8,182 nucleotides of DNA from a virus (taxonomy: Duplodnaviria > Heunggongvirae > Uroviricota > Caudoviricetes), in the IMG/VR virus record IMGVR_UViG_2695420732_000017, one strand, 5' to 3'. Positions 4,428-7,370 of this stretch are shown here, in pieces. Each line of letters opens with the position of its first letter. The first letter of the stretch is position 1. The position numbers were made by a program, and so were the translations under genes. Under the pieces are notes generated by a model that had not been told where the DNA came from, ran no database searches, and saw nothing but the letters and a program-made list of their open reading frames with translations.

Positions 4428-4853
4428 TTAGTGCATCACCACAGCATTCCCTGCCGGGCCGCCGCGATTCATCTGGTCATACAAAACAACCGCTGACGCA
4501 ACAAAATCGTCGACATCCTTCACCAGCCGATCCCGCCGTTCGACAATCTCCCGGTAATACTCAGAGCTGTGACTGCGCATACGGGCCACCAGCAGAGGCG
4601 GCATTGCCTTTTCGATCGCCGGTAACAGAGCCTGAATTTTTTCAACAGCATCAGGGGTGTCTTTATCCAGCCAACGGAAAATTTTCTGTGTATTACGGGC
4701 CAGGGCTTCCGGATGGCTGTCGTCGTACAGTTCAGGGAACGTCATCCCCAGTTCGAAATAAGTCCGGGCTATTTCAGCTGCAGGAACTTTCTCACCATCA
4801 GGGTATGCCCAGGCATTCATCGCCATGCGGATGTGCTCATGTTTGATTTTCAT
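4428..4853 (-). CDS. ydaT: YdaT-like prophage protein (recalled as DUF1019 / Toxin_YdaT family), 141 aa
   Basis: The N-terminus MKIKHEHI and C-terminus ...VVMH match my recollection of Rac prophage YdaT. The gene overlaps the upstream ydaS-like gene by 17 nt. Confidence 0.7.
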   Translation of the reverse strand: MKIKHEHIRMAMNAWAYPDGEKVPAAEIARTYFELGMTFPELYDDSHPEALARNTQKIFRWLDKDTPDAVEKIQALLPAIEKAMPPLLVARMRSHSSEYYREIVERRDRLVKDVDDFVASAVVLYDQMNRGGPAGNAVVMH

Positions 4854-5160
4854 GAATCATTTGCCTCTTGATGCTTCGGGTATGATCGTTTTCGTCATTT
4901 GGTTGCTTCATCGACATATTCTGCGAATAACATGACGAGCGTCGTAAGTATGTCCAATCAACATCAGGACGAAGTTCTTCACACAGGACACCACCTTTTG
5001 TTGCTCGTTCAATCGCAGGACATCTCTCAGCAGGCAACTGACGTACACCTTTGATCCATTGATTTACGCTTGGAGGAGATACACCTAAAAGCCTAGCCAT
5101 TGCTGATTGCCCACCGACAACAGCACAAGCTCGTTTGAATGAATAGTTATCTTTTTTCAT
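4837..5160 (-). CDS. ydaS: YdaS-like Cro/CI-type HTH protein (Cro analogue), 107 aa
   Basis: ATG at 5160 is preceded by GGAG with an 8-nt spacer; the ORF track's longer version begins at a GTG at 5181 with no ribosome-binding site. The HTH segment QSAMARLLGVSPPSVNQWIKG is typical of YdaS-like proteins. The gene is divergent from the repressor gene. Confidence 0.75.
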   Translation of the reverse strand: MKKDNYSFKRACAVVGGQSAMARLLGVSPPSVNQWIKGVRQLPAERCPAIERATKGGVLCEELRPDVDWTYLRRSSCYSQNMSMKQPNDENDHTRSIKRQMIHENQT

Positions 5161-5187
5161 CGAATGAACTCCAAAAAACACGCAACA

Positions 5188-5284: not shown

Positions 5285-5761
5285 ATGCTTAGTGGTAAAG
5301 ACTTAGGCCGAGCGATAGAGCAGGCCATTAACAAAAAAATTGCATCAGGAGCCGTCAAATCAAAGGCGGAAATCGCACGTCATTTCAAAGTCCAACCACC
5401 ATCAATCCATGACTGGATTAAGAAAGGTTCGATAAGTAAAGACAAACTTCCAGAACTATGGCGTTTCTTTTCTGATGTGGTTGGTCCAGAGCATTGGGGG
5501 CTTAACGAATACCCCATACCAACCCCATCCACTTCAGATACAAAAAGTGAACTTTTAGACATAAACAGCCTTTATCAAGCCGCCTCTGATGAAAAAAGAG
5601 CAATTGTGGCTTTCCTCTTATCTGGAAATGCTACGGAGCCTAGTTGGGTTGATCATGACGTTCGCGCCTACATTGCCGCAATGGAAATGAAGGTAGCTAA
5701 CTATCTGAAAAATCAAGAATCAAAACGGAAAAGCCAGAACATCACCAAGACAGGAACTTAA
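5285..5761 (+). CDS. Prophage repressor, HTH DNA-binding protein (RacR/DicA-type functional analogue), 158 aa
   Basis: ATG at 5285 with AGGAG 11 nt upstream. HTH segment KSKAEIARHFKVQPPSIHDWIKKGSIS. Divergent from the Cro-like gene and flanked by operator-bearing promoters. The length (158 aa) fits my recollection of RacR, but the assignment is not verified. Confidence 0.8.
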   Translation: MLSGKDLGRAIEQAINKKIASGAVKSKAEIARHFKVQPPSIHDWIKKGSISKDKLPELWRFFSDVVGPEHWGLNEYPIPTPSTSDTKSELLDINSLYQAASDEKRAIVAFLLSGNATEPSWVDHDVRAYIAAMEMKVANYLKNQESKRKSQNITKTGT

Positions 5762-6395: not shown

Positions 6396-6614
6396 ATGCA
6401 GAAACGAGAACCCGTCATCATCGCGCCAGACTATACCGATGATGAACTTTATGAGTGGATGCACCAGAAAATTAATGCAGCGCAGGATCTGAAATGGGCC
6501 AATGAAGCCAGGGCTAAGCAGGCTGAAAATCTGTCCGCTCTGGAGCAGGATATCACCAATCTGGAAAAAGCAGCGGCATTAAGCATTGCCAGCATGATTA
6601 CATACCCGCGTTAA
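6396..6614 (+). CDS. ydfC: YdfC-like protein, 72 aa
   Basis: ATG at 6396 with GAGG 6-7 nt upstream. Its 72-aa size and position before the DicF locus match the Qin dicB operon. Confidence 0.6.
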   Translation: MQKREPVIIAPDYTDDELYEWMHQKINAAQDLKWANEARAKQAENLSALEQDITNLEKAAALSIASMITYPR

Positions 6615-6953
6615 TAGCTAACCAACGAAGCTAAGGTTGGTAATTAAGGAGTTCTCCACGGGTAAAGTGGAGTGCGTGCGCCGGACACGGGTGAACATCC
6701 GGCACTGACAGTTTACTGAAAGGATATTTCTCTGAAAAGTCAGAGCATAACGCGAAAGCGCACGGCGAGGTTGCTGGTTCATAGATAGCCTGTCGTTAAA
6801 TTTTCGTCGACCGTGCGCTTCCGGTTGTGGCACTCCGCGAAATGGCGCGGCGGTAAGTATGGCGGGGTTATTTCTTCCCCGTTGAGGACACCGGGTTGTC
6901 AGGTTGACCATACGCTTAAGTGACAACCCCGCTGCAACGCCCTCTGTTATCAA

Positions 6954-7012
6954 TTTTCTGGTGACGTTTGGCGGTATCAGTTTTACTCCGTGGCTGCTCT
7001 GCCGCCCTTTTT
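6954..7012 (+). ncRNA. dicF: DicF small regulatory RNA (Hfq-dependent antisense sRNA of the dicB operon) with its rho-independent terminator
   Basis: The sequence tttctggtgacgtttggcggtatcagttttactccgtggctgctctgccgcccttttt matches my recollection of E. coli DicF almost base for base. The 3' end has a GC stem (GGCGG...CCGCC) followed by TTTTT. It sits between the ydfC-like gene and dicB, as in Qin. Confidence 0.75.
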
Positions 7013-7181
7013 AAAGTGAATTTTGTGATGCGGTGAATGCGGCTATGCGCACGCGGAACAGTTAAAACCAAAAACAGTGTTATGGGTGGATTCTCTGTAT
7101 CCGGCGTTAATTGTTAACTGGTTAACGTCACCTGGAGGCACCAGGCACTGCATCACAAAATTCATTGTTGAGGACGCGATA

Positions 7182-7370
7182 ATGGAAACGTTATTACCAA
7201 ACGTTAATACGTCTGAAGGTTGTTTTGATATTGGTGTTCTGCTCAGTAACCGGGAGTTTACTGAAGATGCCATTAAGATGAGAAAATATGAACCTTATCT
7301 TCTCAATGATAATTCCATACTTTCCAGAATTGCCCTTCTTGAACTTGGTATTATCGGAGAACAGCAGTGA
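7182..7370 (+). CDS. dicB: DicB-like cell-division inhibitor (MinC-dependent), 62 aa
   Basis: ATG at 7182 with AGGA 7 nt upstream. The N-terminus METLLPNVNTSEGCF matches my recollection of DicB. The 62-aa size and position directly after DicF agree. Confidence 0.7.
   Translation: METLLPNVNTSEGCFDIGVLLSNREFTEDAIKMRKYEPYLLNDNSILSRIALLELGIIGEQQ

Follow-up and report, generated by a model that had tools for sequence, protein, structure and literature searches.

The dicBF locus and its leader

We analysed a stretch of 8,182 nucleotides of viral DNA (Caudoviricetes, IMG/VR record IMGVR_UViG_2695420732_000017; hereafter the window) with regard to the interval 6615-6953, which separates a ydfC-like gene from the small RNA DicF. 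Based on its open reading frames (ORFs), their matches to Pfam and PHROG families and annotated homologues, the whole window is the immunity and early-left region of an intact Qin-type prophage, and the operon context of DicF, dicA/dicC - ydfA - ydfB - ydfC - dicF - dicB - ydfD, is present in it (Table 1). The stretch from ydfC to dicB is 100% identical to E. coli DEC9B and approximately 97% identical to both the K-12-type Qin prophage and the functional phage Tritos; the leader itself is approximately 96-97% identical to K-12, with zero indels across 6812-6957. The untranslated spacer begins at the stop codon of the ydfC-like gene and is followed directly by a match to the Rfam family RF00039 (DicF; 6956-7007, 75 bits compared to a gathering score of 48), and the DicF annotation of phage Tritos, mapped onto the window, covers 6955-7007. 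Because of this match, the dicBF context and the near-identity to K-12, the interval is the ydfC-dicF spacer of the dicBF operon and, as such, the 5' part of the DicF precursor, which confirms what an earlier note on this DNA, made from the letters alone, had claimed.

In E. coli K-12, the polycistronic transcript from dicBp is the source of DicF, for which no internal promoter was found (PMC10448788). A 190-nt species with an RNase III-dependent 5' end builds up upon inactivation of RNase E, and the 53-nt species requires RNase E (PMC10448788). A scan of the leader in the window for sigma-70 promoters found none on either strand. The DicF precursor leader and its role in processing are already-known biology, namely the textbook biogenesis of DicF, and the interval as flagged therefore adds little. 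The main interest lies in a covarying domain between the RNase III and the RNase E site, which is better conserved than DicF. We read the leader as three parts, i.e. a loose spacer, a duplex that would be cut by RNase III and a conserved, pseudoknotted domain that would act as a scaffold ahead of the RNase E cut, and we consider this reading, taken as a whole, quite likely to be correct.

Structure of the interval as a whole

The earlier note had listed seven perfect stems in the interval as candidate processing structures. All seven are exact at the positions listed, the fourth being in reality 6 bp long (6730-35/6740-45 instead of 6731-35/6740-44); a hairpin CGGGG/CCCCG, the extension of the long-range stem to 21 bp and a pairing between a loop and a linker (6852-62/6908-16) had been overlooked. 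The minimum free energy (MFE) of the interval is -129.8 kcal/mol compared to -109.9 ± 4.8 kcal/mol for dinucleotide shuffles (z = -4.18, with none of 100 shuffles as good), so the folding check proposed in the note gave a stability above chance, though moderately so; the z-score of the minus strand is -3.27. Counting perfect stems with a loop of 3-15 nt and a minimum of 5 bp gave 11 versus 4.5 ± 2.7 in shuffles, a count reached by 12 of 500 of them; of stems with 9 bp or more there are 3, versus 0.09 expected (2 of 500 shuffles). Since adjacent coding stretches of equal length have 6-12 short stems, the excess is mainly due to the two long stems. Rfam searches of 6550-7100, both at gathering thresholds and at E<10, returned DicF only, plus chance matches to a snoRNA and to mascRNA (E ~5), and ARAGORN found no tRNA-like gene in the leader.

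With regard to processing, the proposal held for the long-range stem, which contains the inferred RNase III end, but the seven stems are not equivalent: one would be the RNase III site, one belongs to the conserved domain, one is conserved and uninformative, and four are without comparative support. The comparison across relatives, also proposed in the note, gave covariation for stem 7 and not for stems 1-4 and stem 6; apart from stem 7, covariation backs only the unlisted hairpin at 6863-81 and one pairing of the pseudoknot.

A conserved, covarying domain between the two predicted cleavage sites

For the comparative analysis, approximately 190 loci were gathered from viral contigs, species-representative genomes, E. 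coli genomes, phages and plasmids. A genome-wide pattern scan gave mostly chance matches in GC-rich genomes, the true ones being found only in Escherichia, Citrobacter and Erwinia. The leader turned out to be a mosaic with breakpoints near 6603, 6635, 6675, 6746, 6824 and 6908. Homology to cdtI/Stx2c phages (88.6%) begins at 6824, coinciding with the boundary of the domain, and homology to the leader of the P1 ban operon (76%), annotated there as 'dicF-like region', begins at 6835. With a covariance model built on 6822-6935, 80 sources yielded 76 copies, each the only one at its locus, and HK022 yielded none. Additional copies occur in E. albertii and on Salmonella plasmids, and the domain is kept across Escherichia, Citrobacter, Erwinia, a Salmonella plasmid and P1-like plasmids. 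In the structural alignment, which was fitted to the structure of the model and is thus biased towards it, 96.5% of the cells pair compared to 35-53% with the partners slid; an independent MAFFT alignment agrees. Nine pairs change on both sides, and none of 500 shuffles matches the observed value on any measure.

The segment 6830-6954 would form the body of the 190-nt RNA, with three hairpins and the loop of the last one pairing with the linker between the first two. In the CGGGG/CCCCG hairpin, three of five pairs show two-sided changes (G-C to U-A, A-U or C-G), the variants occurring in Citrobacter, Erwinia, Salmonella and P1-like loci. Two-sided changes affect five of the nine pairs of stem 7, including two adjacent double changes in the plasmid locus L180, the only locus that was found without the loop as probe and in which all 16 positions 6900-6915 of this loop are invariant. 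The loop of stem 7 contains CCAUACGCU (6908-16), to which the linker sequence GGU-AA-GUAUGG (6852-62) is complementary, and RNAalifold picks this helix unprompted. Among 67 distinct sequences, the pair 6858:6912 is U-A in 62, U.G in three and C-G in two; 6852:6916 alternates between G.U and G-C and 6854:6914 between U.G and C-G, without a single disruption. Stem 7 and the loop-linker pairing together would make up an H-type pseudoknot, which we call probable and not proven because a single pair truly covaries. The frequent G.U pairs indicate that the structure is specific to the plus strand, i.e. to the operon transcript. The domain is without an Rfam family, and its structure, covariation and pseudoknot are undescribed in the DicF literature covered, though earlier accounts of conservation upstream of DicF may exist.

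Two further pairings of the domain were considered and rejected. In the MFE structure of the 190-nt RNA, GGCGCGGCGG of the domain pairs with the 3' arm of the terminator; this pairing is not conserved, the terminators of P1 type being non-complementary. The 5' arm of the CGGGG hairpin and the 3' arm of stem 7 contain an exact 8-bp complement, GCGGGGTT/AACCCCGC (6862-69/6925-32), whose formation excludes both hairpins; by inspection, this alternative is lost in P1. The DicF-type terminator hairpin weakly resembles stem 7 (shared UCAG.UU.AC; model match with E = 0.42; locus L186, 504-542; window, 6893-6929/6970-7007), which may reflect an old hairpin duplication, or chance.

The long duplex and the predicted cleavage sites

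The 10-bp stem at 6756-65/6811-20 of the earlier note is the core of a duplex of 21 predicted pairs, the apical part of which (6769-6806, ~35 nt) is hypervariable, being approximately 75% identical or replaced in relatives. Across 38 distinct relatives, the arms are 98.2% paired, and ten pairs show one-sided changes, all of which still give standard pairs. With its 21 predicted pairs, the duplex reaches the length expected of an RNase III site, namely approximately two turns (at least ~20 bp), mostly uninterrupted, around the cut. In cdtI-type and Erwinia leaders, the sequence upstream of 6824 is unrelated, yet a duplex of 22-24 bp, with CA[U/C]AAC...GUUGUG at its base, adjoins the same edge of the domain. 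We take 6746-6829 to be the probable RNase III substrate.

Because the 190-nt and 53-nt species have a common 3' end, the RNase III end would lie 137 nt (190 - 53) upstream of the 5' end of 53-nt DicF, at approximately 6818; this position was derived from fragment sizes (6818 ± 3), the exact nucleotide being only colour-marked in the source figure (PMC10448788). It falls within the 3' arm of the 10-bp stem, between CCGUGCG and CUU. Upon transcription from dicBp, the 21-bp duplex would fold, and RNase III would cut its 3' arm near the predicted position, generating the 5'-monophosphate end of 190-nt DicF, as the cleavage as such has been demonstrated in K-12. RNase E would then cut the 190-nt RNA between AU and UUU (6954/6955), again as demonstrated in K-12, giving rise to 53-nt DicF. 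The segment 6945-52 can pair with DicF 6959-66, and in this predicted helix the RNase E site would fall in a 6-nt loop.

The loosely constrained first part

The first part, 6615-6745, appears to be a loosely constrained, G-rich spacer, and its four short hairpins are not conserved as individual structures. Stems 1-4 (6621-6745) lack covariation, and stems 2-4 are no better than shuffled controls in 31 distinct sequences. Stem 1 is a scar at the site of a gene pair inserted in relatives: strain M6 carries a 640-bp insert with two genes (phrog_1363 on the plus and phrog_10348 on the minus strand) between 6634 and 6635, and in other relatives unrelated sequence replaces the 5' arm of the stem. 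Several Stx2a/PPompW phages share the M6-type insert in the loop of stem 1 (L177, 542-1160). Its oppositely oriented genes encode 135 aa (phrog_1363) and 77 aa (phrog_10348), and the one on the minus strand would require a promoter within the equivalent of 6640-6750.

Stem 2 is absent from the global MFE structure. A compensatory change in this stem was considered and rejected, as the two substitutions in the allele concerned are at non-partner positions and result in C.A and U.G, which breaks the stem. In loci L006 and L122, a 29-nt deletion between the direct repeats CACGGGT (6657-63 and 6686-92) removes one half each of stems 2 and 3. One pair of stem 4 is C-G in 11 of the 31 sequences, U-A in three and mismatched in 17, the latter representing the K-12 type and the commonest allele. 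Two longer helices suggested by the MFE structure, one of 9 bp (GTGGAGTGC/GCACTCCGC, 6667-75/6830-38) and one of 11 bp (6651-62/6878-89), were discarded, both being broken in K-12 and other alleles, with recombinants joining non-matching halves. The C/G ratio is 0.57-0.85 in the G-rich, structured first 250 nt, which may be a poor loading site for Rho; structure and the excess of G over C would keep this long untranslated stretch from being a good entry site for Rho or RNases.

Table 1 Features of the ydfC-dicF spacer and of its surroundings in the window. Arms of stems are given in brackets.
Feature	Position	Strand	Basis and remarks
Cro/YdaS-like gene	4840-5181	minus	ORF list, Pfam/PHROG matches
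DicA-like repressor gene	5285-5761		ORF list, Pfam/PHROG matches
ydfA and ydfB homologues	between repressor gene and ydfC-like gene		ORF list, Pfam/PHROG
ydfC-like gene, 72 aa	6396-6614	plus	ORF list; phrog_1744; ydfC annotation in 100%-97% identical E. coli records
Stem 1, ACCAAC/GTTGGT, junction hairpin	6621-6641 (6621-26/6636-41)	plus	Exact; arms flank the indel site 6634/6635
Stem 2, CTCCAC/GTGGAG	6654-6672 (6654-59/6667-72)	plus	Exact; without comparative support
Stem 3, GCCGGA/TCCGGC	6680-6703 (6680-85/6698-6703)	plus	Exact; in MFE structure; invariant arms, variable loop, no covariation
Stem 4, CTCTGA/TCAGAG, 6 bp	6730-6745	plus	Exact; weak comparative support
Long interrupted duplex, 21 predicted pairs	6746-6829 (6746-6768/6807-6829)	plus	MFE structure; proposed RNase III site
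Stem 6, CCGCG/CGCGG, first hairpin of the domain	6835-6850 (6835-39/6846-50)	plus	Conserved, never covaries; absent in plasmid locus L180
Probable pseudoknot, 5' strand, GGU (AA bulge) GUAUGG	6852-6862	plus	Nearly invariant; pairs with 6908-6916
Hairpin CGGGG/CCCCG, not listed in the earlier note	6863-6881 (6863-67/6877-81)	plus	Covaries
Stem 7, GGGTTGTCA/TGACAACCC, 9 bp, 19-nt loop	6893-6929 (6893-6901/6921-29)	plus	Covaries
Linker with C-ACAAC motif, reaching up to the predicted RNase E cut U6954/U6955 (between A-U and U-U-U)	6930-6954	plus	DicF end mapped from Tritos, Rfam
DicF, 53 nt (6955-7007), plus intrinsic terminator and U tract	6955-7012	plus	Rfam RF00039; terminator scan
dicB	7182-7370		ORF list, Pfam/PHROG
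ydfD	downstream of dicB		ORF list, Pfam/PHROG

Genomic context of the domain

The domain is present in Qin-like, cdtI/Stx2c-like and P1-like elements, none of which shows an N gene. An intrinsic terminator was located by script 45-82 nt after 75 of the 76 copies, and after the remaining one, from Erwinia, a longer terminator hairpin was found by eye at approximately 92 nt. The sequence between domain and terminator occurs in at least eight alleles, and both the downstream seed and the terminator are less conserved than the domain. The DicF seed is absent from the copies of cdtI, Citrobacter and P1 type and constitutes a 19-nt insertion in the Qin type. In P1, the domain lies approximately 40 nt after the Pban start and before tRNA genes, in cdtI approximately 280 nt after a PL-like promoter, and in the window after ydfABC; in the lambdoid loci bearing the module, the order is repressor, ydfA (DUF1391), small genes and domain. 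In the P1-like phage-plasmids L178, L179 and L180, domain and terminator are directly upstream of arrays of two to five tRNA genes and downstream of dmt (Dam methyltransferase).

In phage Tritos, where exo, xis and int lie past the terminator, no N gene is annotated within 9 kb on either side, and by eye, without a profile scan, no N-like protein was recognised among the upstream ORFs of 17 module-bearing lambdoid loci. Two Stx phages that encode N lack exactly 6830-6922 and retain stems 2-4, the long stem and the DicF-like terminator. No second copy of the domain was found on the side of the rightward operon within 9 kb.

Possible functions of the domain

As our best guess, we infer that the domain serves as a scaffold for folding and stability, which would keep the precursor compact and the AU-rich RNase E site exposed, and would let the 190-nt form last as a reservoir. 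Several points weigh against this account and the processing scheme into which it is placed. A scaffold would not account for the conservation of the domain irrespective of the seed, its constant position next to a terminator or its loss from N-encoding relatives; as the Stx phages drop the domain and keep the long stem and the DicF-like terminator, it is dispensable for keeping that part. The cleavage positions are carried over from K-12, at 97% identity and without indels. The pseudoknot, predicted from the alignment, is based on one truly covarying pair and two positions with a pyrimidine opposite G, an alternative nested fold scores about equally well, and MFE folds of the 190-nt RNA favour other long-range pairings. 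The pairing of the long duplex is not above that of shuffles, with zero double changes in the 38 relatives, so that its comparative support would consist of conservation and a structural analogue, without covariation.

Since the domain is conserved apart from the DicF seed and always located just before a terminator, an additional cis-acting role at that terminator is suggested. The earlier note had raised a second RNA product or an antitermination element hidden in the leader, and the evidence on both ideas concerns the domain 6835-6929, not the whole leader. It is conceivable, but in our view rather unlikely, that the domain is a cis element, either an RNA that modifies RNA polymerase in the manner of put from HK022 or an aptamer-like sensor for which the terminator serves as expression platform, and controls read-through of the DicF terminator into dicB, ydfD, the exonuclease gene, xis and int. 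In its favour, a terminator follows every copy, whether recognised by script or by eye, the domain is more conserved than the seed and the at least eight alleles downstream of it, copies of cdtI and P1 type are wholly without the DicF seed, and the domain is placed in leaders of early operons, behind Pban of P1, behind the PL-like promoter of cdtI and behind ydfABC here. The lack of an annotated N in Tritos and of an N recognised by eye in the 17 loci, with exo, xis and int past the terminator, and the deletion of exactly this domain in both N-encoding Stx phages examined also speak for it; RNAs that bind ligands, proteins or polymerase typically have unpaired nucleotides that are conserved, stems that covary and a pseudoknot. 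However, there is no sequence similarity to putL or putR of HK022, 6550-7100 matches no riboswitch or cis-regulatory family of Rfam even at E<10, and the copy on the rightward side is missing within 9 kb, whereas HK022 has both putL and putR. A boxA of the lambda-type nut was not found in the leader at up to three mismatches, and matches across the window are at chance level. The layout of a riboswitch, with a conserved structured domain followed by a variable terminator, is present; inspection of the alleles revealed no conserved, mutually exclusive pairing, and none in which the domain would pair alternatively with the terminator's 5' arm. Among the K-12 transcripts, the ydfABC-dicF RNA that ends at the terminator is a main species and a longer one builds up only with RNase E inactivated (PMC10448788), and the correlation with N comes from few related lineages. 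We give similarly little credence to the wider proposal that, in temperate phages without evident N, the domain represents a cis-regulatory RNA not described so far, which would govern the passage of RNA polymerase through the following terminator either by acting on the polymerase or by sensing a signal, and that DicF was added later, by insertion of the 19-nt seed before the terminator.

Because the domain always comes with a terminator, a role in cis or as part of a long RNA fits better than a free-standing product. That the 5' fragment of approximately 137 nt (~6818-6954) persists after both cuts to serve a function in trans, such as that of a sponge or a protein decoy, seems improbable to us, even though the structure between the two mapped cleavage sites is compact, covarying and specific to the plus strand, the loop CAGGUUGACCAUACGC is invariant in the one locus not found via the loop probe, and 6 nt before the pseudoknot pairing in this loop are not accounted for by the fold. 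A discrete species of this size is not reported in the literature covered, the probes of which target DicF. Very improbable is an origin of the hairpins from chance or composition in a decaying prophage spacer that would do no more than keep ydfC and dicF apart. This would fit stems 1-4, with their lack of covariation, indels, gene-pair insertions and counts of short stems like those of coding neighbours, but it is refuted for 6746-6929 by conservation and by the covariation of the domain: the long stem combines conserved arms with a variable apex, its RNase III cut has been demonstrated in K-12, and the domain covaries as none of the 500 shuffles does and is kept from Escherichia, Citrobacter and Erwinia to the Salmonella and P1-like plasmids. 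Virtually no weight falls on a protein as the product, be it from the 111-aa ORF on the minus strand (6618-6953), an unbroken frame of 111 codons, or from a small ORF on the plus strand. The minus-strand frame starts with TTG and lacks a ribosome-binding site, and the ORFs of the interval in general have only TTG or GTG starts without Shine-Dalgarno sequence and gave no Pfam match. Among close relatives, 1-nt indels at 6877 are common, and both an indel of 3-4 nt and a deletion of 29 nt occur, so that any reading frame is broken on both strands; substitutions instead track the pairing of the plus-strand RNA. The view of the earlier note that the interval holds no credible ORF is thus borne out.

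Comparison with known systems

The locus type and gene order are those of the dicBF leader of K-12 Qin, and the scheme of RNase III followed by RNase E should apply here as well. Qin of K-12 is a remnant, in contrast to the apparently intact prophage of the window, and its leader differs by C6763U in the long stem, C6703A in stem 3 and a mismatched stem 4. For this leader and the 190-nt DicF precursor, Faubladier et al. 1990 is reportedly the source, together with Ragunathan et al. 2023 (PMC10448788). The 'dicF-like region' of P1 (NC_005856, ban operon leader) has in common with the window the structured domain (95.7 bits) followed by an intrinsic terminator, with compensatory changes in the hairpins and in the loop-linker pairing. 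It differs in that it follows the C1-controlled Pban promoters after approximately 40 nt, lacks both the long upstream duplex and the DicF seed, and has another terminator with tRNA genes next to it. The put element of HK022, which brings about processive antitermination as a nascent RNA, is likewise a structured RNA in the early-operon leader of a temperate phage without evident N gene, upstream of terminators to be passed, but comprises approximately 70 nt with two stems and a triplex, compared to approximately 95 nt with three hairpins and a probable pseudoknot here, and it occurs in both the PL and the PR operon, whereas the domain is present in a single copy per locus. Only chance 10-13-mers are shared with the immunity region of HK022, where the covariance model finds nothing. 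Small RNAs of the MicL, CpxQ and SroC type stem from 3' UTRs or operons and are released by RNase E, assisted by stem-loops at their flanks; as with DicF, the cut in the longer transcript is at an AU-rich site near a structure, and the 3' end is formed by an intrinsic terminator; DicF differs from them by an RNase III step before RNase E, and by an upstream structure that is a conserved, covarying domain common to unrelated operons, which is not reported for that type.

The domain is common to three otherwise unrelated groups of temperate elements and lost in two N-encoding relatives. If it did control read-through of the terminator, this would explain the expression of dicB, exo, xis and int without N in Qin-type phages, and just one other kind of phage RNA with such a role would be known. 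If it is a scaffold only, it would still define the stable 190-nt 'long DicF'.

Other features of the window

The spacer between DicF and dicB (7005-7214) contains a sub-threshold, albeit non-random, match to the Rfam family STnc100 (35.3 bits compared to a gathering score of 47, E = 4e-6), which includes the hairpin UCACCUGGAGGCACCAGGCAC. The same match occurs in Shigella phage 75/02 Stx, and part of the spacer is similar in phages D6 and P7. At 484-2119, an ORF of 365 aa with a match to Beta_protein (PF14350, E = 3.8e-52) converges with an ORF of 192 aa without Pfam match, the two overlapping by approximately 40 nt. The pair adjoins a fragment of an IS3-type integrase core (16-363) and looks like cargo inserted into the prophage, possibly a gene pair of defence type.

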